From: Blastocatellia bacterium
Lineage (GTDB): Bacteria > Acidobacteriota > Blastocatellia > RBC074
Direction: 5' to 3'
DNA: 64,000 bases
Assembly (NCBI GenBank): GCA_046331565.1
Contig: JAXLQP010000001.1
Location: forward strand, 2,158,347 to 2,222,346
Within the stretch, counting starts at the first letter, position 1, and each line of letters starts with the position of its first letter. A program made the translations under genes and the position numbers. The notes beneath the pieces are model-generated. The model was not told the origin of the DNA and searched no databases. It saw only the letters and a list, made by a program, of their open reading frames with translations. Below are positions 8,294 to 56,463 of the stretch, one piece after another.

Positions 8294-8330
8294 TAAAAAT
8301 GCTGACGATCAGCGAATCTGTTCATCATTA

Positions 8331-8975: not shown

Positions 8976-8983
8976 GCGCGGCA

Positions 8984-9088: not shown

Positions 9089-9101
9089 CACGGAATCAGC
9101 T

Positions 9102-11131: not shown

Positions 11132-11143
11132 GAAGAAGAATCA

Positions 11144-11218: not shown

Positions 11219-11280
11219 TCAAAAATCTTCGTGCTTCTTCGTGTGGCTTAGTGGATAAGAAATGTGACTGAATCAGCGGT

Positions 11281-18060: not shown

Positions 18061-18166
18061 AAAACCCGGATCACCCGCGTAGTAACGAATTCATTCGTTC
18101 TGCTGCTGAATCAGCGCGATGGCGGAAACAGAACGAATGAATTCGTTACTACGGGATGATCCGGGT
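18061..18166. repeat. Large imperfect palindrome (about 41-bp arms), family F.
   Basis: aaacccggatcacccgcgtagtaacgaattcattcgttctg ... cagaacgaatgaattcgttactacgggatgatccgggttt. The arm is related to the element at 42255-42335. Confidence 0.6.
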
Positions 18167-21451: not shown

Positions 21452-21627
21452 CGGCGCTCAGAGTGCGACAGGCTCACCAGCGTGTCGCAGTTTTAATCAG
21501 ACTATTCTTTCCAAAGTCAGCGACAAGCTGCCAGCCAGAGAAAGCTGTCCAAAATCGTCGCGTCAGCGACTGAATGAGTTTAGCCCGGTCTTTCAAGGCC
21601 GGAACCAGGATGCTCACTGCCGACAGT

Positions 21628-21682
21628 CGCGTCAGCGACGGTTGAGTCTGCGCACCAGCCCGGCTCAACCGTCGCTGACGCT
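21628..21682. repeat. Perfect 18-bp-arm hairpin.
   Basis: gcgtcagcgacggttgag - 17 nt loop - ctcaaccgtcgctgacgc. A solo family-D half arm (gtctgttccgtcatc) lies nearby at about 21810-21830. Confidence 0.5.
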
Positions 21683-21854
21683 ACTTTCCCAATTTGCCAC
21701 TGGCTTCTTCCCGACTTGAAAGACCAGACTGAAGTCAGATGCCGCTTCAGCGGCGGGGAAGCAGACACCGTCCGGGTTCGGGCAGAGACTATCGGCTGCC
21801 AGCTTGTCGAACTTTCTGTTTCGTCTGTTCCGTCATCCCTGCTTTTCTTTTGGC

Positions 21855-24840: not shown

Positions 24841-24948
24841 TGGAGAAATTCCGGCGCAGTACCGGGAGCGTCAGCGACCTGGCCTCTTCAGCAGGCCGTT
24901 TCCGCCAGCACCAGGTCGCTGACGCTCCCGGTACCGCGCCACCTGTTT

Positions 24949-25641: not shown

Positions 25642-26589
25642 TCAGTGCTGTGGTAAATGATCGTCGGGCCGTCCCGCCAGCCAGTGCATGACGTTGAGCA
25701 GGAACTGATGGTTCTGTTTTGCTGCGGGCGCATTCATCCCCATCGGCTGACGCTGCGGCCCGGCAAGCTGCGCCGAAAACATCGCGGCCTCGCCAAACAC
25801 GGCGACGCGGCCTTTACCGGCATTCAGCGTGGCACCCTGCAACCAGCCTTTGAGCGGCACGCGCTTCGTCTGTTCAGTGAACTGCCACGCTACTTCAGGT
25901 TCCAGCGAAACGAACGAATCGCTGAGCGTCATCAGCGGCCTCGCTGCGCCTTCGACGCGAAAGGCCGAACCGGTGAAGGATGCAACAGTATCAATTTTTT
26001 CAGCGGCGACGCTGCCATTGGTAATCGGATGATCGGCGAGCGAACCGTCAGCGCGGCGAAAGATATCAGGGCCGCCCTGCGTTTTGTCGCTGCGCGCAAA
26101 ACCATTGCTGAATCTGATGCCGAAAGCCGAAGCCAGTTTATCGGCTGCGCCGGGAAAGGGCATATGATCAACGATCAGCAGCAGCGCGCCGCCGCTTTGC
26201 ACCCATTCGCGCACGGCGGCAACTTCATCGTCAGTGAAGGCCGATGGTGTGGGCAGCGACCAGTCGCCTTTGCCGTTGCGTTCATTGAGCGCATTGGCAA
26301 TCACCAGAATTTTCGCCTCGCGCAGCGAATCTCTGGAAAATTTCGCGGCTGAACCTTTGACCACAAAACCATCGCGCCTGAGCAGTTCGGCAAAAGGCAG
26401 ATAACGCCCGCTCGCCGTGTGAAAGTTGAAATGCGCCTCATCAATCAGCACCAGCGGCCCTTTGCCCTGACCATAAGCCGGGCGCTCAATCGGCGGGCGA
26501 TAATCAGTATCAGCGACCTGCTGCGCCATCACAAATGCACACAGCGAGAGCAGCGCCGCAACTGTCACAAGGATTTTCCGGTGTGTCAT
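25642..26589 (-). CDS. Secreted DUF4350-like protein (ABC-system accessory, GldG-like).
   Basis: Signal peptide [24 protein letters not shown]. Immediately upstream of the ABC ATPase in the same orientation. Family assignment from memory, weak. Confidence 0.4.
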
Positions 26590-26651
26590 CAACAGTTCTC
26601 CTGACGATTTCATTCTGAACGTTCGCACCACAGCGATTCGCCGCCTGACAG

Positions 26652-26675
26652 CCTGTTCCAACCCGTGTGCCACGA
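26652..26675 (-). promoter_or_regulatory. Possible sigma-54 promoter (TGGCAC-N5-TTGG on the minus strand) upstream of the DUF4350-ABC-RR-HK gene string.
   Basis: Minus strand reads tcgTGGCACacgggTTGGAacagg about 60 nt upstream of the start codon. The -12 element has GG instead of the consensus GC. Confidence 0.2.
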
Positions 26676-26858
26676 CATTAACTGCGGCTAAATCCAATGC
26701 CTGAGTTGAGTCTGTTCACGATTATAAAACCCGCCGCCGAAAAAGTGTCCGTTTTTGGGATGACTGAATCCCGGAAACGAGAGTCACACCCGGATGTTCG
26801 CCAATTCAAAGCTCCCGACACAAACCAACCGGCTGATTATCCGGCCTCACTGTCTGCG

Positions 26859-26992
26859 GAGCGGGCGACAGAACAGGCATTTCCAGCGCAAAGAGACAAA
26901 GAGACACAGACAAACTGTCAGCCCTTTTGCGTTCTTTGTTTCTTTGCACTGGAGATGTCTCCGGTGACCGGGTCATTGAATGCTTATCACTA
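26859..26992. repeat. MITE-like element, family C, copy 1 (intergenic).
   Basis: gagcgggcgacagaacaggcatttccagcgcaaagagacaaagagaca...ttttgcgttctttgtttctttgcactgg...cattgaatgct. Second copy at 47667-47800. Track ORF 26697..27305(+) is an artifact spanning it. Confidence 0.65.
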
Positions 26993-27237
26993 CAAGACGA
27001 ATACCTCACAGTCCGCAGTTTTGAATCACGACCTGATTTATTTTCGCGCTGATTTCGGTTCGGTTCGTTGGCGTACTGACTGGCAGGCCGCCCTCAGGGC
27101 AGCATGCGCCCAACACGAGGAACAAAGGAAAGCACCAGGCTTAAGGCTGGACGACCTGACGACCTTCTGTGCAGTCCAGCCAGTCCGACCCGCCTGCGGT
27201 GCTTTCCTTTTGATTTATTCGCCGGAGGTTTTCATTT

Positions 27238-28161
27238 ATGACCGAAGTGCAGGATCAGCCGAAACCACCCTTCCCCGCGCAGCATCAGCGCAAGCCGGGC
27301 CTTGAATCCGAACTTGACCCGCGTCCGCATTACGAGGCTCCCGAATACAAAGGTTCGGGAAAATTGCAGGGCCGGGTGGCGCTGATTACGGGCGGCGATT
27401 CGGGCATTGGCCGCGCCGTCGCCGTGCTGTTTGCGCGCGAGGGCGCAGATGTGGCGATTATTTATTACTCCGGTGAACAGCGCGATTATTACGCCGATGC
27501 CGATGGCGCGCCGCTGCCGCCTGAACAGAGCGACGCCGAAGAGACACGCAATGCCATTGAGATTGAAGGCCGCCGCGCCCTGCTGCTGCCCGGTGATGTG
27601 AGCGATCCGGCCTTCTGCACTGAAGCGGTCGAACGGACGGTCGGTGAATTCGGGAAACTTGATATTCTGGTCAACAACGCGGCCTTTCAGCAGCATCAGC
27701 CGGGCCTCGAAGCGTTGTCGGATGAACAGTGGGATCACACATTCAAAACGAACATCTACGGTTACTTTCATCTGTGCAAAGCCGCGCTGCCGCACCTTGC
27801 GCCGGGCAGCGCCATCATCAACACCAGTTCCACCACCGGACTTGAAGGCAGCAGCCACCTGCTCGATTATTCGGCCACCAAAGGCGCAATCAACGCCTTC
27901 ACCAAATCGCTGGCGCAGAACCTGACCGAAAAAGGCATCCGCGTTAATGCCGTCGCGCCTGGCCCGGTGTGGACGCCGCTCAATCCTGCCGATCAGTCGC
28001 CCGACAAAGTGGCGAAATTCGGTCAGGACACGCCGATGAAACGCCCGGCTCAGCCCGAAGAGATTGCTCCGGCCTATGTCTTTTTTGCGTCACCGGCTGA
28101 TTCGAGTTACATCACGGGTGAAGTGCTGACGCTGACCGGAGGCGAAACGATGGCTGCGTGA
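27238..28161 (+). CDS. SDR-family oxidoreductase (YghA/YdaD general-stress type).
   Basis: Rossmann TGGDSGIGRA, NNAAF, catalytic YSATKGAI..K motif. N-terminal extension typical of the YghA family. Confidence 0.8.
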   Translation: MTEVQDQPKPPFPAQHQRKPGLESELDPRPHYEAPEYKGSGKLQGRVALITGGDSGIGRAVAVLFAREGADVAIIYYSGEQRDYYADADGAPLPPEQSDAEETRNAIEIEGRRALLLPGDVSDPAFCTEAVERTVGEFGKLDILVNNAAFQQHQPGLEALSDEQWDHTFKTNIYGYFHLCKAALPHLAPGSAIINTSSTTGLEGSSHLLDYSATKGAINAFTKSLAQNLTEKGIRVNAVAPGPVWTPLNPADQSPDKVAKFGQDTPMKRPAQPEEIAPAYVFFASPADSSYITGEVLTLTGGETMAA

Positions 28162-29204: not shown

Positions 29205-29340
29205 TTGCAGAATCATCTCTCTTTCTCCTTCCATCTCTTCTTTCTCTTCTCTGTGACTCTGCGCCTGCGGCGTGAAACTTATTCTCACGCAGAGGCGCAG
29301 AGTCACAGAGAAGAGAGAGAAAAAGAGAGTCAGTGATTTG
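29205..29340. repeat. CT-rich/AG-rich mirror hairpin containing a family-E core.
   Basis: ctcttctctgtgactctgcgcctgcg - gcgtgaaacttattctcacgc - cgcagaggcgcagagtcacagagaagag. Nested hairpins between the PIG-L and GT4 genes. Confidence 0.55.
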
Positions 29341-30876: not shown

Positions 30877-30908
30877 GCCGGATCAGATTTCAGATCAGTA
30901 TCCAGGAA

Positions 30909-31026
30909 GTGTTGCGCGATTTGCCAGAATCGCGCGTCATCCGTTATTGGCCCATTGCGTGAACTGCGCGATTCTGGCAAATCGCGCAACACTCCAGCCG
31001 CGCGACTGCGGGCAAATCGCGCAACA
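30909..31026. repeat. MITE family A, copy 2, with an extra partial right arm.
   Basis: Full element 30909-30992, then a duplicated half-site gcaaatcgcgcaacac at 31011-31026. Track ORF 30681..31160(-) is partly artifact. Confidence 0.7.
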
Positions 31027-31998: not shown

Positions 31999-32294
31999 TA
32001 TTTACTGCTCCTGCTGAGAGTTGATTAACTACGATCCGGGCGCGGGTTCACATCAAACCCGCCGGACGTGATTCAGTCGAAGTGCAAGCCTCATACCATC
32101 CCGCCCCCTCTGACGCCGCCGCGCTACCGCATTACTCCGTAACGCCTCAGAGTCACACCCGCGCACGGTCGTCCAACGCCTGTTCTGAATAAGAACAGCC
32201 ATTCGTCAAAGCAGCCTCTGAAACATTCTCACAGATGCCATTCATTCCAGCACGACAGTTGCTCACCAGTCGCACCGTCTGTCTGAAACAAGCA

Positions 32295-32378
32295 GTGTTG
32301 CGCGATTTGCCAGAACCGCGCGGATTACGCAATGAGCCGATGACGGATGCCGCGCGATTCTGGCAAATAGCGCAACAC
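32295..32378. repeat. MITE family A, copy 3.
   Basis: gtgttgcgcgatttgccagaaccgcgcgg ... cgcgcgattctggcaaatagcgcaacac. Track ORF 32235..32426(+) is an artifact. Confidence 0.7.
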
Positions 32379-32535
32379 ACGTTGGTTCAGGTTACTGATT
32401 TGAAATCTGATCCGGGTCGGGTGTGATGAAGAAACTCGAACTCGTAATCACGAATGTCTTCGCCATCGGCGGGGTGCGTCTGGTTTCGCTCCGGCGCCCG
32501 GCTTAAGGCTGCCGGATGACAGAAGGAGAACAAAC

Positions 32536-37381: not shown

Positions 37382-38158
37382 ATGAGACTCAAACCCATTC
37401 TGCACCTGATGACGTTCGGTGTGCTGGCGCTGACCCTGAGCCTGAGCGTCCAGGCCCAGGAGCGCATGGCCAGCAACAGCAAATCCAAAATGCAGGACAA
37501 GCATCCACAGATGGCGAACCGCGAAAACAGCAAGGATTTCAAGGACGCCATTCATCAGTCTGAGAAGGCGGCCAAAGTATTCAACGAAATCATGAATGCG
37601 CCGGACAGCGCGATTCCGCAAAACCTGATTGACAAGGCTGAGTGCGTCGCGGTCTTTCCCGATGTCATCAAGGCCGGGTTCATCGTCGGTGGTCGCGGCG
37701 GTCGCGGCGTGGCGAGTTGCCGCACCGCGAGCGGCTGGAGCGCGCCTGCCTTCTTTGATATTGGCGGCGGCGATTTCGGGGCGCAGATCGGGGTTCAGGC
37801 CACCGACTTTGTGCTGCTGTTTATGTCCAAAAACGGCATTGACAGCCTGCTCTCGAACAAATTCGAGATCGGCGGCGAAGCATCTGTTGCCGCCGGGCCG
37901 GTGGGCCGCACGGCTTCGGCAGCCACTGATGCCGCGCTGAATGCGCAGATTCTTTCGTATTCGCGCAGCAAGGGACTGTTTGCCGGCGCCGTGATCAAGG
38001 GCGCAGCCGTGACCAAGGACGACAGCGCCATGAATGCCGTCTATGGTGACGCCACATTAAAGGACGTGTTGCAGGACAGCAAATTCACGGCTCCTGCCGC
38101 GACCAGAGCGTTCCCGAATACCCTGGCTAAATATTCCACGCGCAAAGCCGGAAAATAG
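37382..38158 (+). CDS. SYLF (DUF500/Ysc84-like) lipid-binding domain protein, secreted.
   Basis: Signal peptide; YSRSKGLFAGAVIKGAAV; GGEASVAAGPVGR motifs. Confidence 0.6.
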   Translation: MRLKPILHLMTFGVLALTLSLSVQAQERMASNSKSKMQDKHPQMANRENSKDFKDAIHQSEKAAKVFNEIMNAPDSAIPQNLIDKAECVAVFPDVIKAGFIVGGRGGRGVASCRTASGWSAPAFFDIGGGDFGAQIGVQATDFVLLFMSKNGIDSLLSNKFEIGGEASVAAGPVGRTASAATDAALNAQILSYSRSKGLFAGAVIKGAAVTKDDSAMNAVYGDATLKDVLQDSKFTAPAATRAFPNTLAKYSTRKAGK

Positions 38159-38480
38159 TTTTGCGTGACTGCATCAGCAGATGGATGCCCGTCGGCCACA
38201 GCCTTCGCCCTGGGAACGCAAACCCCGCTGTTCATCAGCGTCCGGCGCGTGTTCTCAGGTCCTGGCTGTGGTTGGAATTGCATCCGTTTCAAATGACTCT
38301 GAAGCCGGTGTCCTGATCCGATTCCGGTGTCCGGTCGGCAGGCAGGCGACTGTCTGTGCCTGAGACACCGGCTTCAACATCTCCTGTTATTCCTCATTAT
38401 CTGCCCATCTTCCCGCACTGTGGCCTGTCGGCATTGCCTGCCGCTGATTGAACCGATCTTTTGAAGTAAGGAGAGTTCGA

Positions 38481-41400
38481 ATGAATACCGTGAGAAGCTT
38501 TGTTCTGACCTGTTGTGCGCTGCTTGTTGTCGCGGTGGTCAGCCTTGCGCAGTCCAATACCGGACGACTGGTCGGCACTGTGATCAGCCCTGATGGTGGC
38601 GTCGTACCTGGCGCTCAGGTCGTCGTCATTGACAATCAGACAGCGAAGGAAAGAAATCTGGTGACGAGCGGCGAAGGCACCTTCCTGGTGCCGCAACTCG
38701 ACATCGGCAATTACACTGTCCGCGTTACGGCGCCGGGTTTCAAAACCTTCGTCGCCAATGATGTCAAGATTGATGTGGGGCGTGAATACACGCTCAACGT
38801 GAAGCTTGAAATCGGCCAGACGCAGGACAGCGTCAGCGTCACTGCCGGGGCCGATGTCGTCAACGCCACTAACGCTGAACTGAGCAGTTCAGTCAGCCCG
38901 CGCCAGATTGTCGAACTGCCGCTCAACGGGCGCGACCCGACATCGCTGATTACGTTGCAGGCAGGGACGGCTTCCAACGGCGCAACCAATACCTCAATCA
39001 ATGGCCAGCGTCCGGCCTTTACCAACATCACGCGCGACGGCATCAACATTCAGGACAACTTCATTCGCGCCAACGCCTCTGATTTCACGCCGCAGCGTCC
39101 GACGGTTGATGACGTGGCCGAATTCACAATCACGACGCAGAACGCGAGCGCCGACCAGGGTTATGGCGCTTCGCAGGTGCAGATGGTCACGCCGCGCGGG
39201 CAGAACGCCTTTCACGGCGCGCTGTTTGAATACAACCGCAACTCGGAATTTGCGGCCAACGACTTTTTCAGCAATGCCAGCAATACGCCGAAGCAGTTTC
39301 TCAACCGCAATCAGTTTGGCGGCAGAATCGGCGGCCCGATTGTGCCGAACAAACTGTTCTTCTTTTTCAGCACTGAGTTCTTTCTGCTGCGCACGCAGGC
39401 TTCGCAACTGCGCACGATTCTGACGCCGTCAGCGCGCCAGGGCACTTTTACTTATGTGCGTGCCGACAACGGGCAGCTTCAGACCGTCAATCTGTTCACG
39501 CTCAACCCGCAGGTGACGGGCATTGATCCGACCGTGCAAAGCCGCATCCTGGCGAACCTGCCAGCGGTCGGCAACACGTCAGACCGGGGCGATCAGCGCA
39601 ACACGACGGGGCTGCGGTTCAATCAGCGCGCCAATCTTGACCGCAAGACCTTTACCGGGCGGCTTGATTACGATCTGAACGAACGCAACACCTTCAGCGG
39701 CGTTTACAGCTTTGTCCGCGAAGATCCGAATGACCGGCCCGATGTTGATGGCACCGCCGGGTTCGCACCCGTGCCGGTCGTCAACCAGCCGGCTGATCGT
39801 CGCTTTCTCTCGACGGCGTGGCGCTGGTCGCCCACCAACCGGCTGACCAACGAAGTGCGCGGCGGATTTTTCAAAACCAATCCGACCTTTTTGCGCACGG
39901 TGGCGGAACCGTCCTTCTTTCTGACGCTGCCGCTGGTCAGCAGTCCCGAAGTGAACTTTCAGAACCAGGGGCGTCACACGCACACTTACAGCGCGCAGGA
40001 CACGGCTGATTACACTTTCGGCAATCACGCTTTCAGATTCGGCGGACAGGCGCAGTTTTTCAGAATCTCGCCGTTCGCTTCATTTGACACGCTTCCGCGC
40101 TTCACGCTCGGCACCAATCAGAACACGCCGCAGATCACGACCGCGCAGTTCACCAATCCGGCGCTCTTTCCCGGCGGCATTTCAACGGCGCAGCGGAGCA
40201 CGGCCAATTCCCTGCTCGCGCTGCTTGGCGGCATCGTCGGCAGCGCCACGCAGACTTTCAATGCGACGAGCCGCACGTCAGGTTTTGTGCCGGGCGCGCC
40301 GTTCGAACAGAAATTCGCTTACGAAAACCTCTCGCTTTACTTTGCCGATCAGTGGCGCATCTCGCCGCGTTTCAGCCTGAACCTGGGTCTGCGGTATGAA
40401 TACTTCACACCGCTCAGAGAGGAGCATGGGCTGGCGCTCGAACCGCTGCTGCTCTCAGCCGATGTGGTCGGAGCCGCGCTCAACCGCAATGGCGTGGTTG
40501 ATTTCATCGGCAACAATGCCGGCAGCAAAAATTTCTTTGAAGCCGACACGGACAATTTCGCTCCGGTCGTCAGCTTCGCGTGGTCACCGCAATTCGAGAA
40601 CAAATTCCTGGGTCACGTTTTCGGCAACAGCGGACGCACGGTGTTGCGTGGCGGCTTCAGAATGAGTTACGTCAACGACGATTACCTGCGTTCAGCCGAT
40701 AACGCGCAGGGCGGTAACTCAGGCCTCTCATCCACCGTGACGCTGCCAGCCATCAGTGGGCGGCTGAGTACTCTGAACGCGACGGTGCCGACTCCGGCCT
40801 TCGGCATTCCGCGCACATTTGCCGAAGGCAATCTGCGGTCGGGCAATTTCTTCTCGACCGTCTTTGCGATTGATCCGACGATTCAGGTGCCGCGCCTCTT
40901 TGAATACAACTTCGGCATTCAGCGCGAACTCGGATTTCAGACCGTCTTTGAAATCCGCTACGTCGGCAGCTTCAGCAACCAGTTGATTCGCGGCATTGAC
41001 TTCAACCAGGTCAACATTCGCAGCAACGGTTTTCTGACTGATTTCAATAACGCGCGGGCGAACCTGCTGCTGACGGGCAATCCGGCCTGTACGACGGCGC
41101 AGAATGCGGGCTGTCAGCCGCTGACGGTCTTTCCGCAACTTGGCGGCAGTGGTTTTCTGAGCAATGCCACCGTGCAGGCCAATCTGATCAACGGCACACC
41201 GGCTGATCTGGCGATCTTTTACGTCACCAACGGAGTGTCGGGCGCAGGGCCGCTGTTCCTCGCCAACCCGAACGCGGGGCCGGTGGACTTTCTGACCAAT
41301 GCCGGCAAGTTCCGTTACAACGGTTTGCAGGTCGAAGTGCGCAAGCGGTTCTCTGACGGGCTGTCATTCCAGGGCAACTACACGTTCCAGAAAACGCTGA

Positions 41401-42119
41401 CGAACGCTTCCGGCATTGGCCAGACGCGCTTTGAGCCGAGTCTTGATCTGTTCAATGAGGCGCTGGAATATGCCCGCGCTGATTACGATCAGACGCACGT
41501 TTTCAATCTCAATGCGATTTATGAACTGCCGTTCGGCCCCGGCAAGCGGTGGCTGAATGAAGGACTGGTGTCGCGGTTGCTGGGCGGCTGGCAACTGACG
41601 ACGATCATCCGCGCAGGCAGCGGCGCACCGATCACGATTGTGGATGCGCGCGGCACGCTCAATCGCGCCGGACGCTCAGGACGGCAGACGCCGCAGACTT
41701 CGCTGACGAAAGATCAGATCAAGGATCTGATCGGCATCTTCAAGCGGCCTGACGGAGTCTTTTTCATCAACCCGTCAGTCATCAATCCGGCCACAGGTCG
41801 CGGCGCTGAAGGCTTCGGCCAGCCAGCGTTCCCCGGCCAGGTCTTTTTCAATAACGCACCCGGACAGACCGGCAGTCTGGAACGCGCCTTTATCAACGGC
41901 CCGATCTTTTTCAACTGGGATGCGGGCATCTTCAAGAACTTCAAGATCACGGAACGGGCACGGTTCCAGTTCCGCGCTGAACTTTTCAATGTGCTGAACC
42001 GGGCCAATTTCTTTGCCAGTCAGTTCGGCACGCTCAACATCAACAGCACGAATTTCGGGCGCATCGTCTCAACCTTTGACCCGCGCATCGTGCAATTCGC
42101 CGGACGCCTGGAGTTCTGA
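38481..42119 (+). CDS. TonB-dependent receptor with CarboxypepD_reg-like N-domain (second paralog).
   Basis: ATG 38481 with AAGGAG 8 nt upstream; GRLVGTVISPDGGVVPGAQVVVIDNQTAKE.. ; ends ...GRLEF. Confidence 0.75.
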   Translation: MNTVRSFVLTCCALLVVAVVSLAQSNTGRLVGTVISPDGGVVPGAQVVVIDNQTAKERNLVTSGEGTFLVPQLDIGNYTVRVTAPGFKTFVANDVKIDVGREYTLNVKLEIGQTQDSVSVTAGADVVNATNAELSSSVSPRQIVELPLNGRDPTSLITLQAGTASNGATNTSINGQRPAFTNITRDGINIQDNFIRANASDFTPQRPTVDDVAEFTITTQNASADQGYGASQVQMVTPRGQNAFHGALFEYNRNSEFAANDFFSNASNTPKQFLNRNQFGGRIGGPIVPNKLFFFFSTEFFLLRTQASQLRTILTPSARQGTFTYVRADNGQLQTVNLFTLNPQVTGIDPTVQSRILANLPAVGNTSDRGDQRNTTGLRFNQRANLDRKTFTGRLDYDLNERNTFSGVYSFVREDPNDRPDVDGTAGFAPVPVVNQPADRRFLSTAWRWSPTNRLTNEVRGGFFKTNPTFLRTVAEPSFFLTLPLVSSPEVNFQNQGRHTHTYSAQDTADYTFGNHAFRFGGQAQFFRISPFASFDTLPRFTLGTNQNTPQITTAQFTNPALFPGGISTAQRSTANSLLALLGGIVGSATQTFNATSRTSGFVPGAPFEQKFAYENLSLYFADQWRISPRFSLNLGLRYEYFTPLREEHGLALEPLLLSADVVGAALNRNGVVDFIGNNAGSKNFFEADTDNFAPVVSFAWSPQFENKFLGHVFGNSGRTVLRGGFRMSYVNDDYLRSADNAQGGNSGLSSTVTLPAISGRLSTLNATVPTPAFGIPRTFAEGNLRSGNFFSTVFAIDPTIQVPRLFEYNFGIQRELGFQTVFEIRYVGSFSNQLIRGIDFNQVNIRSNGFLTDFNNARANLLLTGNPACTTAQNAGCQPLTVFPQLGGSGFLSNATVQANLINGTPADLAIFYVTNGVSGAGPLFLANPNAGPVDFLTNAGKFRYNGLQVEVRKRFSDGLSFQGNYTFQKTLTNASGIGQTRFEPSLDLFNEALEYARADYDQTHVFNLNAIYELPFGPGKRWLNEGLVSRLLGGWQLTTIIRAGSGAPITIVDARGTLNRAGRSGRQTPQTSLTKDQIKDLIGIFKRPDGVFFINPSVINPATGRGAEGFGQPAFPGQVFFNNAPGQTGSLERAFINGPIFFNWDAGIFKNFKITERARFQFRAELFNVLNRANFFASQFGTLNINSTNFGRIVSTFDPRIVQFAGRLEF

Positions 42120-42165
42120 GCAGGAACGCGCCTGAGGGCCATCAACCCGGCCCTCAGGCCTGAAT

Positions 42166-42236
42166 ATGGAGTGCGGCGAGTTCCCGCCGCTTTTGACTTT
42201 CAACCAGTCAAAAGCGGCGAGAACTCACTCCACATC
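42166..42236. repeat. Palindromic element, family B, copy 2, preceded by a perfect 10-bp-stem hairpin at 42131-42158.
   Basis: atggagtgcggcgagttcccgccgcttttgac-tttcaacc-agtcaaaagcggcgagaactcactccacat. Confidence 0.6.
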
Positions 42237-42254
42237 CTCAAACAACAGGCCGCT

Positions 42255-42335
42255 CCCTGTAGTCAACAATTTATTCGTTCTGATTTCCGTCATCGCGCCG
42301 GTTCAGACCTGAACGAATAAATTTACGGCTACGGG
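42255..42335. repeat. Palindromic element related to family F (18061-18166).
   Basis: ccctgtagtcaacaatttattcgttctg ... gaacgaataaatttacggctacggg. The loop carries the ttccgtcatc motif seen in family D. Confidence 0.5.
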
Positions 42336-42380
42336 CAGCGGCCTGGCTCATTATTTGATGCTTTTTTCAGGCAGTGACTG

Positions 42381-43748
42381 GTGACAGTCCGATTAGTGAT
42401 GGTTATGAAAGATGTGATGAGTCAGGCTCAGATGCCGGTGTTTTCATTGTTCAGATTTGTCGTCAGCGCCACGCTCACCATGTTCCTGCTCGCCGGTTGC
42501 GCCACGCACCAGCAGAATAACGATTCAGCCGGTGACACATCAGCCAGTCCTTCACCCGCTGCTTCTCCGGTTCCGGTTGCCGTTGCCACTGCCATCACGC
42601 GACAGGTTTCAGCTTTTATTCCCGCCACCGGCAGCTTTGCCGCTGACGAGTCATCCGATGTGGCGCCCGAAGTTTCAGGACAGGTCACTGCCACGCCGGT
42701 TGATGTCGGCGATTTCGTGCGCGAAGGCGCAGTCATCGCGCGCCTTGATGATCGTGACGCGCAGTTGAAACTGGCGCAGGCGCAGGCTTCGGAACGCCAG
42801 GCCGCTGCCGCCGTCCGGCAGGCTCAGGCGCGGCTCGGCATCGGTCAGGGCGAAACTTTCGATGTCAGCGAAGTGCCGGAAGTGCGCGCGGCGCGCCGTC
42901 AGTATGAAGCCGCTGAAGCGCAGGCGCGGCTGGCTGAAACCAATGCGCGACGTTACGAAAAGCTGATTGAAACCGGCGACGTTTCGCGCAGCGTCTACGA
43001 TCAGGCGCGCGCGCAGGCCGAAACCGCCAGAGCACAGGCCCAGGCTGCGCGCCAGCAGTATGAAGCTGCGCTCAATAATGCGCGCCAGGGCAATCAGAAC
43101 ATTGCCGGAACCGAGGCCGCGCTCGCAGCCGCCCGCGCCCAGGTTGCCATTGCGCGCAAGGCCGTCAGCGATACGATCATCAGAGCGCCCATTTCAGGTT
43201 ATGTCAGCGACCGCCCTGCCGCGCCCGGCGAAGCGGTTTCGCCCGCAACCAAAGTAGCCACGATTCAGCGGATCAATCCGATCAAACTGCGCCTGCAATT
43301 ATCTGAAGCCGATGCAGGCAGGTCGCGCATCGGCATGCCGGTCAAAGCCAGCGTGGCCGCTTACCCGGAACGCGAATTTACCGGACGAGTCACTGCCATC
43401 AATCCGGCCATTGACCCGAATTCGCGCACCGTGACCGTTGAAGCGCAGATTGATAATCCCGACACGCTGCTGCGACCAGGGATGTTTGCCACCGCGCAAC
43501 TGATTCAGCCCGGCGGCGAACAGGCAGTCTTTGTTCCGCGCGCAGCGGTCATCAACGATCCGGCCACCAATTCCGCGCACGTCTTTGTCATCGAAAACAA
43601 CACGGCCCGGGTGCGCGTGGTGCAGACCGGCGAAACTGAGAACGATCTGATTCGCATCACGACAGGTCTTGGCAGCGGTGAGGTGATTGCGGTCAGCCAT
43701 CTCGAACAACTCTTTGATGGCGCGCCGGTCAGCGCGCAGCGTCAGTGA
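42381..43748 (+). CDS. Efflux RND periplasmic adaptor (membrane fusion protein, HlyD/AcrA family).
   Basis: Lipoprotein-like LLAGCATHQQ; long coiled-coil hairpin (AQAQ.. repeats); C-terminal beta-barrel/MP domain. Confidence 0.75.
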   Translation: MTVRLVMVMKDVMSQAQMPVFSLFRFVVSATLTMFLLAGCATHQQNNDSAGDTSASPSPAASPVPVAVATAITRQVSAFIPATGSFAADESSDVAPEVSGQVTATPVDVGDFVREGAVIARLDDRDAQLKLAQAQASERQAAAAVRQAQARLGIGQGETFDVSEVPEVRAARRQYEAAEAQARLAETNARRYEKLIETGDVSRSVYDQARAQAETARAQAQAARQQYEAALNNARQGNQNIAGTEAALAAARAQVAIARKAVSDTIIRAPISGYVSDRPAAPGEAVSPATKVATIQRINPIKLRLQLSEADAGRSRIGMPVKASVAAYPEREFTGRVTAINPAIDPNSRTVTVEAQIDNPDTLLRPGMFATAQLIQPGGEQAVFVPRAAVINDPATNSAHVFVIENNTARVRVVQTGETENDLIRITTGLGSGEVIAVSHLEQLFDGAPVSAQRQ

Positions 43749-43823
43749 AGCTGCTGCGGAACAGTAGTTGCCGTGCTACAGGCTGATTATCAAGCCTGTG
43801 AGTGAACAGGATAAAGGGTTGTT

Positions 43824-44258
43824 TTGAATTTGCAGGAAAGGGGTACACCACAGTGTATGGAACCGCAACGCAATGTCTTTGCCCTGGTCATTGATGATGA
43901 TCATGACCAGTATGAAATCATTAAAGCAGTTCTGTCACTTGAGGGGTATTCGGTGTTGACCGCTGACAATGCAGAAGATGCGCTGAAACTTTACAGCCGC
44001 TACCGGCCTTTCGTCATCATCACAGATTTCAGCATGCCGGATGTTGATGGCGCCGAACTGATTGAACTGCTGAGATCAGACGGAGCAAAGGATATCCCGA
44101 TTGTGATCGTTTCTGCCTACTCACCTGATTACGTGCAGGAAAAGATGCATCCGGGTTACGAACCCGACGCGATTCTGCCCAAACCGCTGGATTTTGATCT
44201 GTTGTTGAGGCGGGTCAGAAATTACCACCAGCATCGCCGCGAACTGTGTTACGCCTGA
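43824..44258 (+). CDS. Stand-alone receiver (REC) domain response regulator.
   Basis: DD...D (FVIITDFSMPDVDG) acid pocket, conserved K (LPKP). No output domain. Confidence 0.6.
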   Translation: MNLQERGTPQCMEPQRNVFALVIDDDHDQYEIIKAVLSLEGYSVLTADNAEDALKLYSRYRPFVIITDFSMPDVDGAELIELLRSDGAKDIPIVIVSAYSPDYVQEKMHPGYEPDAILPKPLDFDLLLRRVRNYHQHRRELCYA

Positions 44259-44330
44259 GAATTCTCAGGCGTAACGTTGATTCCTGACACTTCCTCCTGA
44301 ACATCGGTTTCCCTGGCGTTTGATGACCGC

Positions 44331-47300
44331 ATGCAGAAGCTGGCCGAAATCTGTGTTCGCCGTCCGGTTTTCGCCACAATGCTGATTCTGGCGCTGACTG
44401 TGGTCGGCGTCTTCTCTTTCTTCACCCTCGGCGTTGATCTTTTTCCGCGCGTTGATTTCCCGACCATCACTGTTTCCGTCCTCAATCCCGGCGCTTCGCC
44501 GCAGGAAATCGAAACCGAAATTACCGACAAGGTTGAAGCCTCGGTCAACACCATCAGCGGCATTGATGAATTGCGCTCGACCTCGATTGAAGGCGTCTCG
44601 CAGGTCTTTATCACGTTCGTTCTCGAAAAGGATGCCGATGTGGCCGCGCAGGAAGTGCGCGACAAAGTTAACCTGATTCTCGACGAACTGCCCGAAACCG
44701 CCGAAACGCCGATCATTCAGAAACTCGACACCGAGGCTGCTCCGGTGCTGCGCATCGTGATTTCGGCCCCGCGCCCGTTGCGCGAAGTCAATGACATTGC
44801 CGACAAACAGATTGGTGAAAAGCTTGAAAGCATCAGCGGCGTCGGTCAGGTGCAGATCATCGGCGGCAGCGAACGCGAAATTCAGATTCAGGTTGATCCT
44901 GACCGGATGCGCGCCTTCAACATCACCATCAACGATGTCGTCAATGCCGTCCGCGCGCAGAACATCGAAGTGCCGGGCGGGCGCATTGATCAGGGCACAC
45001 GCGAGCTGACGGTGCGCACGCTCGGACGCATCCGCGACATCGAAGGCTTCAATAACCTGGCCATCGCCAATAAAAATGGGTTTGCCGTCAAGGTGCGCGA
45101 CATTGGCCAGGCCGTTGACACCGCCGCTGAACAGCGCACTGCCGCGCTTTTTGACGGCAAACCGGCGGTCAGCATTCTGGTGTCAAAACAATCAGGCCAG
45201 AACACCGTCGCCGTTGCCGATGCAATCAGAGAAAGGCTGAATGAAATCAAACCGACGCTGCCGCCCGATGTGCATTACGAAATCGCGGGCGATCAGTCCG
45301 TCTACATTCGCGCCGCTGTCGAATCAATCGAAACGCACCTGATCGAAGGCAGCATTCTCGCTTCAATCGTCGTCTTTCTCTTTCTCTGGAACTTTCGCTC
45401 GACGCTGATTTCAGCCATCGCCATTCCGACTTCAATCATTTCAACCTTCGGCCTGATGGCGGCGATGGGTTACACGCTCAATCAGATCACGATGCTTGCG
45501 CTGACGCTGATGGTCGGCATCGTGATTGATGATGCGATTGTGGTGCTTGAGAACATTTATCGTTATATCGAAGAGAAAGGCCTGTCGCCGTTTCAGGCCG
45601 CCATCGAAGGCACGCGCGAAATCGGCCTTGCCGTCATGGCCACGACGCTTTCACTGCTCGCCGTCTTTCTGCCGGTCGGATTTATGGGCGGCATCGTCGG
45701 GCGGTTTATGTCTTCGTTCGGCCTGACGGCTTCGTTTGCAATTGCGGTTTCGCTGCTCGTTTCATTCACGCTGACGCCGATGCTGTCAGCCAGACTCATC
45801 AAACGCCGCGATCCTGAAACAGCCGCAGGCGGCAGCGAAGGCGCGCCCGAACGCACGCCGGGGCCGGAACCGAGCGCGCACGAAACCGTCGCGCAGATGC
45901 CGCCAGCACCCGCGCACGAACCGGCACACGCTTCAAAGGAAGGCCGCATTTACCGCCGCATTGATCGCAACTACACGCGCCTGCTTGAGTGGTCAATGGA
46001 ACATCGCAAGGTGATTGTCGCCCTGAGCGCGCTGACAATCATCAGCATCGTGCCGCTCTTTATGCTGATCGGCAAAAACTTTCTGCCCGTTGATGACCAG
46101 TCACAATTTGAAATCACTGTGCGCGCCGCTGAAGGCACGACATTGCCCGCGACACTGACCATCTTTCAGCGCATTGCCACTGAAGTGCGCAAACTGCCCG
46201 GCGTGACCGACACGCTGACAACTGTTGGCGGCGGTCAGCAGTCGCCGGTCAACAGCGGTTCGATTTACGTCAAACTCGCGCCCATCGAAGACCGCGAACT
46301 GTCGCAGCAGGAACTGATGCTGCGCGCGCGTGAACTGCTGAAAAAATTTCCATCAGAACTGCGCACCAGCGTGCAGCAGGTCGCAGGCATTTCAGGGGGC
46401 GGCTTTCGCAACGCCGATATTCAGTATCTCATCGGCGGCCCCGACATTCAGAAACTGACGCAGTATGCCGACACTCTGCGCCAGAAGATGCAGACCATTC
46501 CCAACGTGGTTGACGTGGACACATCAGTAGTCACGGGCAAGCCCGAACTGCGCGTGGTAATTGACCGGCAGCGCGCCGCTGATCTGGGCGTGCGGGTGGC
46601 CGACATTGCGCAGGCGCTGAACACGCTGATCGCCGGTCAGCGCGTCGGCACATTCAATGTCGGAAAGGATGATTACGACGTGCGCGTGCGCGCTGCTGGT
46701 GAATTTCGCAAAAGCGTCGAAGACCTCAAACGCATGACCGTTGCATCAAATCGCGGCGGCCAGATCACGCTTGATAACGTCGTGCACATCGAACCCGGAA
46801 CCGGCCCGTCCTCAATTGACCGGCTCAACCGTCAGCGACAGGTCACCATCACCGCCAACGTCACGCCCGGCGGTTCGCAATCGGAGGTGATTCAGCGTAT
46901 GAACGAATTTGTCAGTCAGATGAAACTCGACCCCGGATATACAACGGGCCTCGCCGGAAGATCGAAGGAACTGGGCCGCGCCGGTTATTACTTCGTTCTC
47001 GCCTTCGCGCTGTCATTCATCTTTATGTACATGGTGCTGGCCGCGCAGTTTGAATCGTTCATTCATCCGATCACGATTCTGCTGACGCTGCCGCTGGCGA
47101 TTCCCTTCGGCATCATCTCGCTGCTGATTTTCGGGCAGACGGTCAACATCTTTTCCGGCCTCGGCCTGCTGCTGCTGTTTGGCATCGTCAAGAAGAATGC
47201 GATTTTGCAGATAGATCACACCAACGGTTTGCGCGCGAAGGGACTGGAACGCCACGCCGCGATCATTCAGGCCAACCGCGACCGCCTGCGACCGATTCTG

Positions 47301-47591
47301 ATGACGACGATTGCGCTGGTGGCAGGCATGCTGCCGCTCGTCATTTCAAGCGGCCCCGGTTCAGGCACCAATCGTTCAATCGGAGTGCTGGTCGTTGGCG
47401 GCCAGTCATTGTGCCTGCTGCTCACGCTGCTCGCAGTGCCGGTCTTTTATTCATTGTGGGAGGATTTGCTTGAACTGCCGGTGTGGCGTTATCTCGGTCA
47501 TCGTTACACCCGCATCAAATCAGGCCTGCGCGAACGTGCGGTCGGTTATCTCTCGCCGCTCATCAATTCATTTCGCCGCCGACCGCGACAA
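44331..47591 (+). CDS. Efflux RND transporter permease (AcrB/CzcA superfamily). No stop codon before the next gene in this frame; reads through into the OMF.
   Basis: 12-TM RND architecture with two large periplasmic loops. Canonical N-terminus MQKLAEICVRRPVFATMLILALTVVGV. Confidence 0.8.
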
Positions 47592-49958
47592 ATGAGCATC
47601 ATCATCGGCCTTATTGCATTGATGTCAGCACCGACGATGACAGATGCCGCGCCGCTTGATCCGCGTGAGCGGGCGACAGCACAGACATTTCCAGCGCAAA
47701 GACACAAAGAGACAAAGAAGGTTTTATGCTCTCTTTGCGTTCTTTGTCCCTTTGCGCTGGAAATAAACCCGCTGACTGGTGCATTGAATGCTCGCCATGA
47801 CTTTGCGCTGTCATCCGCGCCGCAGCCTGTCGAACAGCAACAGCAGCAATCTCAGCAGCCGGGCCGTCGTGAACAGAAACCGCCGCGTCCTGGCGAGCAG
47901 CAGCCGTCGCAGCAGGAACAACCGCCCAATTCAAACTCGGCTCCGATTCGCCCGCGCAACGAGGCGCAGCAGAGCGCGCAGCCGCAGACCGGCCCGCAAC
48001 AGCAGCGACAGCAGACGCAGCCTGACACGACCGGCCCGCGCCCCGTCACTCCGCAATCGCCGACCACCACGCAACCCGCGCCTGGCAGCGCAGGCAGTCG
48101 CACAACTCAGCCCGGCACGAATCAGCAGCCTGGCGCGACGCCGCCAGCAGGCGCGCAACCAGGCGTGCCAGCCACGCCGGGTCAGGATGTGGGCATCACG
48201 CCGGGCATCGCTCCGGCACAGTTGCCGCCTCAGCCGCCGGTCGTTGCGCCCGATTACAAAGCGCCGCTGCGCCCGCTGCCTCCGGCTGAACGAGTCGGCG
48301 TTGACGTGCGCGAACACACGCCGCTGAGCCTGGAAGAGGCTGTGATGATGGCGCTCAATAACAACAAGGACATCAACATCTCGCGCATTGACACGCTGCT
48401 CGCCGGATATGATCTGAGCGCAGCGCGCGGCATTTACGATCCGAACATCACTTCTGAAAGTTATTATGAACATCGCGTGACGCCGGTCAGTTCAGTTATC
48501 GGCGGCGGCAGGAATGGTTCAGTCACGCAGAAAGATTTGACCGGCAGCGCAAGACTCGGCGGCTTTACGCCATTCGCCGGTGGCGCTTATCAGCTTGATT
48601 TTTCGTCCACGCGGCTGACCACCAACAATCAGTTCGTTTCGCTCAACCCGCAATTCCCTGCCGCGCTGACGGTGACTTACACACAACCGCTCTGGCGCGG
48701 GCTGCGGTTTGATGACAATCGCCGCCGCATCGAAGTTGCCAAAAAGAATCTGACGCTGACCGACGCTCAGTTCCGGCAGCGCGTGATTGAAATCATCACC
48801 CGCGTCGAGCAGGCTTACTGGGATCTGGTCTTTTCGCTCAGGAATCTTGACGTGCAGATCGAAGCCGTCAAACAGGCGCGGCGACAAAGCGAAAGCAATC
48901 GCCGGATGGTGCAGGAAGGATTGCTGGCGCCGATTGACATTGTGGCCGCTGACACTCAGGTAGCGACTTTCGAGCAGAATGTTTACACCGCGCAGGAATC
49001 AGTCACCCGCGCTGAAAACACGCTCAAGACGCTGCTGCTGGCTGATCGCACGTCGCCGCTCTGGTCGCAGGCCTTGTGGCCGACTACGCCGGTCACGCTG
49101 GAACCACCACGCCTTCAGCCTGGCGAAGCCGTTTCATCGGCGCTGGCGAGTCGGCCTGAATTGCAGCAGTTGCAGGCCTCAGCCGAAATCAACGAAATCA
49201 ATTCGCGTTATTACCGCGATCAGACCAGACCGCAGATTGATCTGGTCGGCACGTACACAAGTTCAGGGCTGGCCGGTTCGCCGGTTGACACCGGCCCTAA
49301 TCCTTTCACCCAGGGACTGGCCGGGCTGCAACAGCGCATCAACGACCTGTCGCGTCTGGCAGGGCTTGATCCGCTGCCGCCGCTGAGTTCAGGCGGAGGC
49401 ACAGTTTCCGACCTGCTCATTGGCGGCTATGGCCAGTCGCTCAGTAACCTGCTGCAACAGAACTATCCGACCACTCGTGTCGGGCTGCGCATCACGCTGC
49501 CGATTTTCAACCGCACGGCTGAAGCACAACTTGGCCGCTCACTGACTGAAGCAACGCGCATCATCAATCAGCGCGAACAGCTCGAAATACTGATCGAAGC
49601 TGAAGTCCGCAATACCATTCAGGCTGTGCGCTCAGCCGAAGCAAAGCTGGCCGCCGCCGCTTCGGCGCGCTCATCAGCCGAACAGCAGTTCGCCAGCGAA
49701 GAGCGACGTTTGCAGGCCGGGTTGTCCACGGTCTTTCTGGTGCTGCAACGTCAGACCGATCTGCTTGCCGCGCGTGGCCGCGAATTGCAGGCGCAGACTG
49801 ATCTGAATAAATCCATCGCTGAACTGCGCCGCGTTACGGGCGTCACGCTGCAATCACATCACATCACTTTGCAGGGTGAGAATCCCGGCAGGGCTACCGG
49901 AGAACGCATTTCAGCCGCACTGCTGCGCCAGCTTCAACTGACCAGCACACGCCGCTGA
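47592..49958 (+). CDS. TolC-like outer membrane factor with signal peptide and a long P/Q-rich linker. A MITE copy is embedded at 47667-47800.
   Basis: MSIIIGLIALMSAPTMTDA signal peptide. OMF repeats from about 48320 (LSLEEAVMMALNNNKDINISRIDTLLAGYDLSAARG..., second repeat ...AELRRVTGV). In frame with the RND gene. Confidence 0.6.
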   Translation: MSIIIGLIALMSAPTMTDAAPLDPRERATAQTFPAQRHKETKKVLCSLCVLCPFALEINPLTGALNARHDFALSSAPQPVEQQQQQSQQPGRREQKPPRPGEQQPSQQEQPPNSNSAPIRPRNEAQQSAQPQTGPQQQRQQTQPDTTGPRPVTPQSPTTTQPAPGSAGSRTTQPGTNQQPGATPPAGAQPGVPATPGQDVGITPGIAPAQLPPQPPVVAPDYKAPLRPLPPAERVGVDVREHTPLSLEEAVMMALNNNKDINISRIDTLLAGYDLSAARGIYDPNITSESYYEHRVTPVSSVIGGGRNGSVTQKDLTGSARLGGFTPFAGGAYQLDFSSTRLTTNNQFVSLNPQFPAALTVTYTQPLWRGLRFDDNRRRIEVAKKNLTLTDAQFRQRVIEIITRVEQAYWDLVFSLRNLDVQIEAVKQARRQSESNRRMVQEGLLAPIDIVAADTQVATFEQNVYTAQESVTRAENTLKTLLLADRTSPLWSQALWPTTPVTLEPPRLQPGEAVSSALASRPELQQLQASAEINEINSRYYRDQTRPQIDLVGTYTSSGLAGSPVDTGPNPFTQGLAGLQQRINDLSRLAGLDPLPPLSSGGGTVSDLLIGGYGQSLSNLLQQNYPTTRVGLRITLPIFNRTAEAQLGRSLTEATRIINQREQLEILIEAEVRNTIQAVRSAEAKLAAAASARSSAEQQFASEERRLQAGLSTVFLVLQRQTDLLAARGRELQAQTDLNKSIAELRRVTGVTLQSHHITLQGENPGRATGERISAALLRQLQLTSTRR
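47667..47800. repeat. MITE family C, copy 2, inside the OMF coding region.
   Basis: Near-identical to 26859-26992. Translated in-frame as RERATAQTFPAQRHKETKKVLCSLCVLCPFALEINPLTGALNARHD. Confidence 0.65.
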
Positions 49959-49976
49959 ATCCCGGAAACGAAAAAG

Positions 49977-50160
49977 AGAGATGACGGAACAGACGGAAAT
50001 AACGGAATAAACTGAAAGCTTCAGAGCAGATTTATGTCTTCTTTCGTGTGTTCCGTTATTTCCGTCTGTTCCGTCATCTCTCTTCTTTCTCTTCTTCCTT
50101 ACTCTTCGTTCTCTTCTTCCTTATCTGTTTCCTCTTCCTCGTTCCGGGTCACATCTGACG
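49977..50160. repeat. Family D hairpin, copy 1 (perfect 32-bp arms of 9-bp TTCCGTnnn units), followed by a CT-rich run.
   Basis: gagagatgacggaacagacggaaataacggaa ... ttccgttatttccgtctgttccgtcatctctc, then cttctttctcttcttcctt... Confidence 0.65.
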
Positions 50161-51489: not shown

Positions 51490-51828
51490 GATTAGTGATC
51501 ACTCCTTTCACAGCGGTTCGATAACAGTTCACTGTGATGAATCAATGTGCAACTGTCGCGCCACGAACGCCTGAGGCAGATCACTTTAACCGGGATCAGC
51601 AGGGACTGGTTTTCGCCCCGGAGGGGCTGGTGAAAATAGCGCGGCAATTCATTGCCGGGAACAATGGAAAACAGGCGCGAGTCCCGTCAGGGACGGTTGA
51701 TGAATGCTGCTTCAGCCGTCCCTGACGGGACTCGCGCTTTATCCGGGATTCTTTTCCCGGCAATGAATTGCCGCGCTATTTTCGATTGTCCCTGCCGGGA
51801 CAGCAGAAGTGTTCTGAGTTCGACGGCC

Positions 51829-56317: not shown

Positions 56318-56330
56318 CCAGAAAGCAGAA

Positions 56331-56432
56331 GAGAGATGACGGAACACACGGAAAGAATGGAACAGACGAAAATAAACTCAGGCAGGGTGATCTGTTCCGT
56401 TATTTCCGTTCTTTCCGTGTATTCCGTCATCT
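56331..56432. repeat. Family D hairpin, copy 2 (4 x TTCCGTnnn units per arm).
   Basis: gagagatgacggaacacacggaaagaatggaacagacg ... ctgttccgttatttccgttctttccgtgtattccgtcatctc. Confidence 0.65.
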
Positions 56433-56463
56433 CGCTGTCTCTCACTGAGCGAATGAAAACAAA

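Follow-up and report, generated by a model that had tools for sequence, protein, structure and literature searches.

The DNA considered here is a stretch of 64,000 nucleotides from a Blastocatellia bacterium (assembly GCA_046331565.1, contig JAXLQP010000001.1), called the window in what follows. It contains two copies of a palindromic repeat, one of which is located inside an open reading frame (ORF) that encodes an efflux permease of the resistance-nodulation-division (RND) type and an outer membrane factor (OMF). The copy in the ORF was first recorded as a mobile-element-like insertion in an OMF gene (first-pass annotation). The ORF, the repeat and their counterparts in related bacteria are described below.

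The fused reading frame

The Pfam profile ACR_tran, a complete AcrB-type domain, covers residues 6-1042 of the encoded protein and OEP covers residues 1599-1837, with no stop codon between the RND permease and the OMF. The PGAP annotation of this Blastocatellia metagenome-assembled genome (MAG) has one CDS of 1875 aa, an 'efflux RND transporter permease subunit', on a contig of 3.29 Mb. The first-pass annotation spoke of a continuous OMF reading frame; the frame does run uninterrupted through the element, but it is that of a single 1875-codon RND-OMF ORF with both domains. After the RND domain come, in order, a tail, the hydrophobic segment MSIIIGLIALMSAPTMTDA, five residues, the element, a linker rich in Pro and Gln (P/Q-rich) and the OMF core (Table 1).

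The hydrophobic segment has the h-region IIIGLIALM and a signal-peptidase-type site that reads T-D-A↓A in the window; the closest relative, the ENA contig L208, has A-D-A↓A there. The orthologue P0094 has a signal peptide of similar sequence (..MLVSAPGAALA↓Q). With RRRPRQ as basic residues ahead of ATG 47592 in the RND frame, the segment is, by inspection, a candidate signal peptide. What had been called the OMF signal peptide looks cleavable and lies a few residues before the element, but it is an internal segment that is reached from the RND tail without a stop. It can be read as an internal signal peptide or as a 13th membrane span of a fusion precursor.

The arrangement is not peculiar to this genome. 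More than 40 proteins from independent assemblies, found in a search with the junction region, carry both Pfam domains. They belong to Pyrinomonadaceae and Bryobacteraceae genomes that were assembled from Illumina or long reads (a subset of P0125-P0189, also L207 and L208). The more than 15 relatives inspected have a common junction pattern, in which PVFYS is followed by a tail, a basic cluster (RVRRR, RFKK), 12-17 hydrophobic residues, A-x-A↓Q or FGQ, and the OMF. In unfused relatives the RND protein ends in KDxYxDQxSGD and a stop, and the OMF that follows has its own signal peptide. Judged from these predicted proteins, RND-OMF fusions are frequent in Pyrinomonadaceae and Bryobacteraceae and widespread in Acidobacteriota assemblies, and the host gene belongs to this naturally fused type. 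No description of an RND-OMF fusion with an internal signal-like segment was found in the literature searched. The fusion is probably the reason that many OMFs of this group bear the JGI name 'HAE1 family exporter'.

Table 1. Positions in the window of the fused ORF, its junction segments, the two repeat copies and the other long hairpins
Feature	Position	Strand	Description
Fused RND-OMF ORF	44331..49958	+	1875 codons, complete RND permease and OMF; identical to NCBI MFN7945363.1
RND C-terminal tail	47457..47591	+	45 residues, basic cluster RRRPRQ at its end; lacks the KDxYxDQxSGD ending and stop of unfused orthologues
Segment read as signal peptide or 13th membrane span, MSIIIGLIALMSAPTMTDA	47592..47648	+	T-D-A↓A signal-peptidase-type site; same pattern at the junction of all fused relatives
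Element, copy 1	47667..47792	+	Inside the fused RND-OMF ORF, frame 0; 46 codons including the adjoining ones, 47661-47798
Hairpin of copy 1	47687..47764	+	5' arm 47687-47718, loop 47719-47733, 3' arm 47734-47764
P/Q-rich linker	47799..48392	+	About 200 residues, precedes the OMF core; conserved in orthologues, ω 0.16
Element, copy 2	26859..26984	+	Intergenic, between a divergent gene at 25642-26697 (-) and an SDR gene at 27238-28161 (+)
Hairpin of copy 2	26879..26956	+	Loop 26911-26925, sequence unrelated to the loop of copy 1
Other long hairpins, first group	49971-50087, 56330-56436, 29238-29321, 24853-24940, 18078-18153, 8986-9085, 30908-30993
Other long hairpins, second group	1071-1156, 32283-32390, 3714-3849, 42171-42345, 21575-21737, 51616-51799

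The repeat unit

The two copies of the 126-nt repeat are on the same strand and co-linear. They align without gaps as two blocks, both spaced 20808 nt, the first of 52 nt with 92% identity and the second of 59 nt with 80%. Over the whole unit 97 of 126 positions are identical (77%); without the 15-nt loop the value is 95 of 111 (86%), and the loops themselves are unrelated (2/15 identical). An identity of more than 85% over about 130 bp had been reported earlier; the repeat is real and the figure holds outside the loop, but the overall identity is 77% and the unit has 126 nt, not 134. Just beyond these limits identity falls to 24-38% (34-38% past 47792), so that the ends of the unit are sharp in both contexts. 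A 27-nt core pattern, with up to three mismatches allowed, matches only the two copies in the window and nothing in 100 shuffles. The arm sequence has no other occurrence in the window, and an nhmmer profile made from both copies finds no third copy within the 64 kb.

Each unit has a 78-nt hairpin at its core, with a flank of 20 nt on the 5' side and one of 28 nt on the 3' side. The internal inverted repeat described earlier for each copy is confirmed: in copy 1 the stretches 47687-47710 and 47741-47764 are 92% complementary, and both copies have stable folds. The fold energies of the + strand are -58.9 kcal/mol for copy 1 in a 141-nt context (z -5.9) and -56.6 for copy 2 (z -4.7), while the 78-nt hairpin of copy 1 alone reaches -40 kcal/mol; the complementary strands of both copies give folds of roughly equal stability. 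The 5' arm of copy 1 is A/G-rich and is built from 8-nt sub-repeats with CAAAGA, whose complement TCTTTG is in the other arm. The sub-repeats form the series GCGCAAAGA-CACAAAGA-GACAAAGA in one arm and its complement in the other, and the arms are of the ATTTCCAGCGCAAAGA type.

Copy 1 encodes RERATAQTFPAQRHKETKKVLCSLCVLCPFALEINPLTGALNARH within the uninterrupted frame. Of the three forward frames of the genic unit a single one is open throughout, so a random insertion had a chance of about one in three of staying open, and the open frame says little by itself. The neighbours of copy 2 had been named as DUF4350 and short-chain dehydrogenase/reductase (SDR) genes; the SDR assignment is solid, but the DUF4350 label is below threshold (Pfam 20 bits, cut-off 30). 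The frame of copy 2 that corresponds to the coding frame of copy 1 is open, as stated earlier, but this is weak evidence, since the hairpin core is free of stops in all six frames of both copies. The 202-aa ORF around copy 2 (26697-27305) has no Pfam match, and its GC content at third codon positions (GC3) is like that of non-coding sequence.

Predicted translation of the element

The first-pass annotation had allowed for an OMF start downstream of the element, which is not borne out. The first in-frame start codon past the element is a TTG, and the product, LNARHDFALSSAPQ..., has no hydrophobic segment or signal peptide, so export of an OMF with this start would be impossible. Since the RND frame has no stop, ribosomes would read through into the element. 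With no RND stop and no downstream start that carries a signal peptide, any synthesis of the OMF part would include translation of the 44-46 codons of the element, and a downstream start is unlikely on these sequence grounds. ATG 47592 (MSI..) has no basic n-region and lacks the Shine-Dalgarno-like AGGA that is present in L002 and L003. A start at the ATG of the 'M.IK.Q' motif of the orthologues was also considered and given little weight, because the conservation of that ATG is explained by the overlapping RND motif KDxYxDQxSGD with its stop; in L084 a stop codon follows the ATG.

Selection on the encoded peptide was estimated from the comparison of the window with L208 (dN/dS, ω, by the Nei-Gojobori method). 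The ratio is 0.10 for the whole ORF, 0.06 for both the RND domain and the OMF core, 0.16 for the P/Q-rich linker, 0.20 for the RND tail and 0.74 for the signal-like segment. In the element it is 1.21 (46 codons, with 11 non-synonymous and three synonymous changes), and the non-synonymous excess relative to the remaining ORF is significant (Fisher p = 1.8e-5). GC3 is 0.43 in the element versus 0.64-0.72 in genes. Together, the high ω and low GC3 indicate that the peptide drifts freely and that only the frame and the stop-free state are kept. This is expected if selection acts on the downstream OMF domain, and it counts against the exaptation that had been suggested for the insert. The encoded peptide looks like a tolerated passenger rather than a new functional part of the protein.

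Orthologues and close relatives

About 240 homologues, fused or unfused and with 51-68% identity, were listed and about 30 of these were read. None of those listed has an element-like segment between the signal-like segment and the P/Q-rich linker, and BLASTP finds nothing that resembles the element peptide in orthologous OMFs. The orthologues pass from the signal cleavage site straight into the P/Q region (..VSQA↓QSSAPTQQQ in P0002, compared with ..HDFALSSAPQPVEQQQ in the window). The earlier view of the segment as an insertion is upheld to this extent, that it is extra relative to the orthologues. Apart from L208, all other fused relatives inspected lack the element.

L208 (protein P0196), found by cluster look-up, is 94.3% identical in nucleotide sequence to positions 37683-50016 of the window. 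Its fused ORF has 1873 codons, and the element in it (9945-10070) has the site and the frame of copy 1, with 12 of the 126 nt different. The element was therefore at this site before the window and L208 split (dS 0.20). At two positions the genic copy of L208 agrees with copy 2 of the window against copy 1 (CAGAACAGGCA), as expected if both copies go back to a single source sequence. Absence of the element elsewhere in the genome, together with orthologues that share the segment as conserved coding sequence, had been named earlier as what would refute the first reading. The outcome is mixed: the segment is coding in L208, yet its protein sequence is not kept, and all more distant orthologues lack it.

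The closest relative after L208, L001 (GCA_035560235.1, DATMAG010000079.1), is syntenic with the window and 80-92% identical in nucleotide sequence. Its operon (7282-11779) has a 1126-bp deletion, which corresponds to window 47068-48193 and is located at a CATC microhomology, so that the end of the RND part, the junction and the P/Q-rich linker are gone; the RND part also has two 1-nt indels. The dN/dS values between the window and L001 are 0.11 and 0.06. The operon of L001 looks broken, and this may reflect either recent decay or an assembly artefact.

Possible selection on the hairpin

At the gathering score, Rfam has no match in the whole window, and at E <= 10 only sub-threshold models of miRNA precursors appear near the element, as for any long hairpin. 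Scans for promoter and terminator consensus sequences find nothing at either copy, and the structure lacks the features of an intrinsic terminator, since its stem is rich in A and U and is not followed by a T-run.

In the comparison of the window with L208, compensatory changes are absent from all 29 pairs. One G-C pair has been altered on both sides in L208 to a C/U mismatch, and the fold is weaker there by about 10 kcal/mol. The arms have changed at four of 63 positions and the rest of the element at eight of 63, compared with 15.5% of 4-fold degenerate sites. The arms have thus changed somewhat less than the 4-fold sites (P = 0.025); the difference between the arms and the rest of the element is not significant (Fisher p = 0.36). 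Other intergenic stretches in the same alignment are conserved as much or more (1-5% changed). The evidence for selection on the hairpin itself is thin.

Palindromes are present at the same junction in other lineages. In L003, a Blastocatellia MAG (GCA_046331525.1), an 807-codon ORF (5692-8115) starts at an ATG that overlaps the end of the RND gene and reads in frame through an unrelated 205-nt palindromic element, which has 40-nt arms (5776-5815 and 5941-5980), and then into the OMF signal peptide; the annotated OMF start (6001) is downstream of the 205-nt element. The junction of L002 has a 55-nt inverted repeat (604-658), and that of L084 has an inverted repeat with 29-nt arms (3864-3978) in a 144-nt spacer. 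These unrelated palindromes at the RND/OMF junction keep alive the possibility of a cis-acting role.

Origin of the repeat

The first-pass annotation had labelled the repeat as MITE-like, that is, similar to a miniature inverted-repeat transposable element (MITE). It is short and non-autonomous, with 126 nt and no transposase gene, and contains only host or spurious frames. Nevertheless, the label is unproven, since there is no target-site duplication, the inverted repeat is internal and only two copies were found. Terminal inverted repeats are absent, as the conserved unit continues for 20 nt on the 5' side and 28 nt on the 3' side of the inverted repeat, and the flanks are non-complementary apart from a match of 6 nt (AGCGGG/CCCGCT), which copy 2 has in degraded form. 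Neither copy is bordered at both of its ends by a direct repeat. The heptamer ATCCGCG (47659-47665 and 47813-47819) was rejected as a target-site duplication, since its second occurrence is 20 nt past the unit; an excision between the two (154 nt) would break the frame and extend RND by about 240 codons.

Searches for further copies gave negative results. A stringent two-anchor pattern has no match in GTDB representative genomes or JGI metagenomes, collections of DNA that do not include the source genome, and two patterns have no match in IMG/VR. There is no further copy in 1.4 Mb of fetched related loci. The 17-mer CATTTCCAGCGCAAAGA has at least 120 metagenome matches, but nhmmer finds the rest of the element in none of those listed, so they are chance matches. 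Among proteins, a six-frame profile of both copies finds nothing at E <= 10 in 5.8e9 cluster representatives, and a four-row peptide profile gives four weak matches in 1.84e9 representatives, each of them either a protein made of tandem repeats or the translation of a hairpin from another family. All these negatives are weak, because the DNA collections lack the source genome and the protein searches cover cluster representatives; the 1875-aa protein of the window escaped them, being behind a 592-aa representative. An exact protein look-up intended to extend the locus beyond the window returned only a 6.4-kb Logan contig.

On balance, it is probable that the element is a low-copy, lineage-specific palindromic repeat, one copy of which was inserted into the linker of the RND-OMF fusion without a change of frame, where it is translated and tolerated but not exapted. 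One copy would have landed in a divergent intergenic region and the other in the RND-OMF linker, a few codons past the signal-like segment and before the disordered P/Q-rich region. Arrival would have been by insertion, through transposition or another copy mechanism, and survival would have required that the insert preserve the frame and bring no stop. The element would have no function of its own. If the precursor is cleaved after T-D-A, the element peptide would form the N-terminus of the mature OMF. A more specific version, in which signal peptidase cuts a true translational RND-OMF fusion at its internal signal peptide and the palindrome is a selfish insert in the linker of the kind known from Rickettsia, is tenable but distinctly more tentative.

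Several observations weigh against an origin by insertion of a mobile repeat. Only two paralogous copies are known, and neither target-site duplications nor terminal inverted repeats are present, which leaves mobility unproven. The identity of the loops (2/15) in combination with that of the arms (86-92%) is not explained by simple divergence from one insertion-competent master. An empty site for copy 1 is not available in L001, where the junction is deleted, nor is there one for copy 2, as the DUF4350-SDR neighbourhood is kept in none of the 80 SDR loci fetched (<=74% aa identity). In addition, the slower change of the arms relative to 4-fold sites suggests room for constraint at the nucleic-acid level.

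Comparison with known palindromic repeats

The best reading, by analogy, is that the element is an acidobacterial counterpart of the Rickettsia palindromic elements (RPEs), which are palindromic repeats located in frame within genes (PMC10969869). In common with RPEs and with other MITE-type repeats that form in-frame fusions within genes (ERIC, BOX, Correia), it is a palindrome in the range of about 100-150 bp with intergenic and in-gene copies, the latter with an open frame, and it adds a few dozen residues that orthologues lack. It is in frame within the gene in both the window and L208. The likeness is one of behaviour, and no sequence relationship is expected. RPEs, however, have dozens of copies and ten families per genome, many of them intragenic, whereas here two paralogous copies are known, one of them in a gene. 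The host also differs, being a free-living soil Acidobacterium, and the insert is in the disordered linker of a fused transporter rather than in a folded enzyme.

REPINs, which are mobilised by RAYT transposases, are similar in having two inverted arms with a far more variable spacer, at a length of about 80-110 nt, and are usually intergenic. The variable loop between the present copies resembles that of REPINs and of MITE families with variable interiors, but the REP tag is absent. REP superfamilies are defined by GTAG or CGTC tags (PMC3733652); by inspection the unit has no GTAG/CTAC or CGTC/GACG, its arms are not imperfect palindromes and its known copy number is not high. No matching arms are present elsewhere in the window, and no search was aimed at a RAYT gene. 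Classical MITEs share the small size, the lack of coding capacity, the inverted repeat and, as far as two copies in 64 kb show it, the dispersal. They differ from the element in their target-site duplications, of which there is none here, and in having the inverted repeat at the ends rather than inside the unit; no partner insertion sequence was identified in the window.

Intercistronic hairpins of the REP and bacterial interspersed mosaic element (BIME) type stabilise the mRNA upstream in an operon, as in the malEFG paradigm. The element is similar in that it is predicted to form a stable hairpin between two linked coding regions, with unrelated hairpins at the junction in related operons. 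It differs in being within a stop-free ORF and without covariation.

The same build is seen in the CTTTGCG-type hairpins of soil bacteria (L007, L014, L025, L206, P0123 and P0124), in which a purine-rich arm of 8-9-nt sub-repeats (..GCAAAGA..) is followed by a loop and a complementary pyrimidine-rich arm, and which translate to ..QRRKGAK.. and ..LRLCAFALEM... Such hairpins are frequent in soil Acidobacteriota, where they fall into many families that are unrelated to one another. The similarity is at the level of class only (nhmmer E >= 0.004, no common flanks), so that they represent different families.

Alternative explanations

It is unlikely, but deserves consideration, that the hairpin is a selected cis-acting element, such as an mRNA stabiliser, a processing or pause site or a protein-binding palindrome, with the peptide as a by-product. 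The unconstrained peptide, the kept arms with a free loop (both between the paralogues and in the slow arms of the L208 comparison) and the unrelated hairpins at the junctions of L002, L003 and L084 are all in its favour. So is the behaviour of the other long hairpins in the window, most of which begin 9-120 nt past stop codons, one being 93% conserved in L001 against 83% for the surrounding alignment. Against it stand the lack of compensatory pairs together with the mismatch and weaker fold of L208, the non-significant difference between the arms and the remaining element, and the absence of a U-tract, promoter consensus or Rfam family. Moreover, copy 2 is not at the 3' end of any gene, and fused relatives manage without such a hairpin. 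A non-mobile event, in which 126 nt were copied once by local duplication or gene conversion and no repeat family exists, would account for the two known copies being on the same strand 20.8 kb apart, without target-site duplications and without others in any search. It is nonetheless improbable, since one copy event does not yield a central 15 nt that is unrelated while both sides are similar; the sharp boundaries of the unit at both ends and in both contexts, and the richness of the window in other multi-copy hairpin families of the same build, also speak against it.

Degeneration of the junction is less probable still. Insertion and loss of the RND stop would then have put the OMF part, or even the whole operon, out of function, leaving the open frame as a remnant. 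The two 1-nt indels and the junction deletion of the sister L001 fit such a course, as does a signal-like segment that has no basic n-region of its own if ATG 47592 is the start. On the other hand, RRRPRQ is directly upstream in the same frame, 1875 codons in the window and 1873 in L208 are intact at dS 0.20 with an ω of 0.06 in both domains, and fusions that contain such an internal segment are frequent and evidently kept up. Hardly any weight can be given to a function of the element in the protein, as a second signal, anchor or spacer. Its A/G-rich arm encodes the basic RHKETKK and its T/C-rich arm the hydrophobic VLCSLCVLCPFAL, a basic-then-hydrophobic layout that is placed exactly where orthologues have their signal peptide. 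But ω is 1.21, the basic part is altered in L208 and the hydrophobic stretch there begins VSFSLCVLCPFAL, no suitable in-frame start codon is located within or past the element, and a better signal-like segment, similar to that of P0094, is upstream. The hydrophobic stretch was rejected as a real signal peptide on the basis of ω and the missing start codon. An in-frame insertion that is translated and tolerated is therefore preferred, as a probable rather than an established origin.

Other repeats in the window

The window has more than 12 other long hairpins, belonging to several repeat families, with arms of 25-46 nt and loops of about 7-90 nt (Table 1). Nearly all are intergenic, most have the position relative to stop codons given above, and none has a U-tract. 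The one conserved in L001 is that on the 3' side of the fused ORF (49974-50092). These hairpins may be terminators or 3'-end stabilisers of the host. Hairpin spacers may also turn over by indels: in the alignment with L208, the spacer between the genes of a TonB-type receptor and the membrane fusion protein (window 42120-42380) has 41 gapped positions, while other intergenic stretches are without indels.

Two further repeats are of other kinds. A 233-nt direct repeat with 98% identity occurs at 5183-5415 and 8390-8622, its copies being 3.2 kb apart and bracketing four small ORFs. On the minus strand, two adjacent genes (10079-13722) consist mostly of 87-nt (29-codon) tandem repeats, with at least 12 units of 60-85% identity. 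Outside the window, the array of L206 (73-600, ENA ERZ15185895), in which five tandem CTTTGCG-type hairpins of about 120 nt are called as the 221-aa protein P0124, is an example of hairpin repeats annotated as a gene.

Implications

The element alone is a modest addition to the palindromic repeats that are known to survive in genes by means of an open frame. If the more specific and more tentative version given above is correct, it would be the first RPE-like in-frame case outside obligate intracellular bacteria, and the RND/OMF junction, in view of the unrelated 205-nt element of L003, would be a recurrent landing site for palindromic repeats. It also provides a clean natural example of a frame that is kept while the peptide drifts (ω about 1.2) between domains at 0.06, in two genomes at a dS of 0.2. 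The fusion context is weightier than the element, the 'OMF gene' being the 3' half of a 1875-codon ORF. If the fusion is real at the protein level, the annotation, in which OMFs of this group are frequently named 'HAE1 family exporter', would need correcting, and the fusion bears on how tripartite efflux pumps may be assembled with a fixed stoichiometry.

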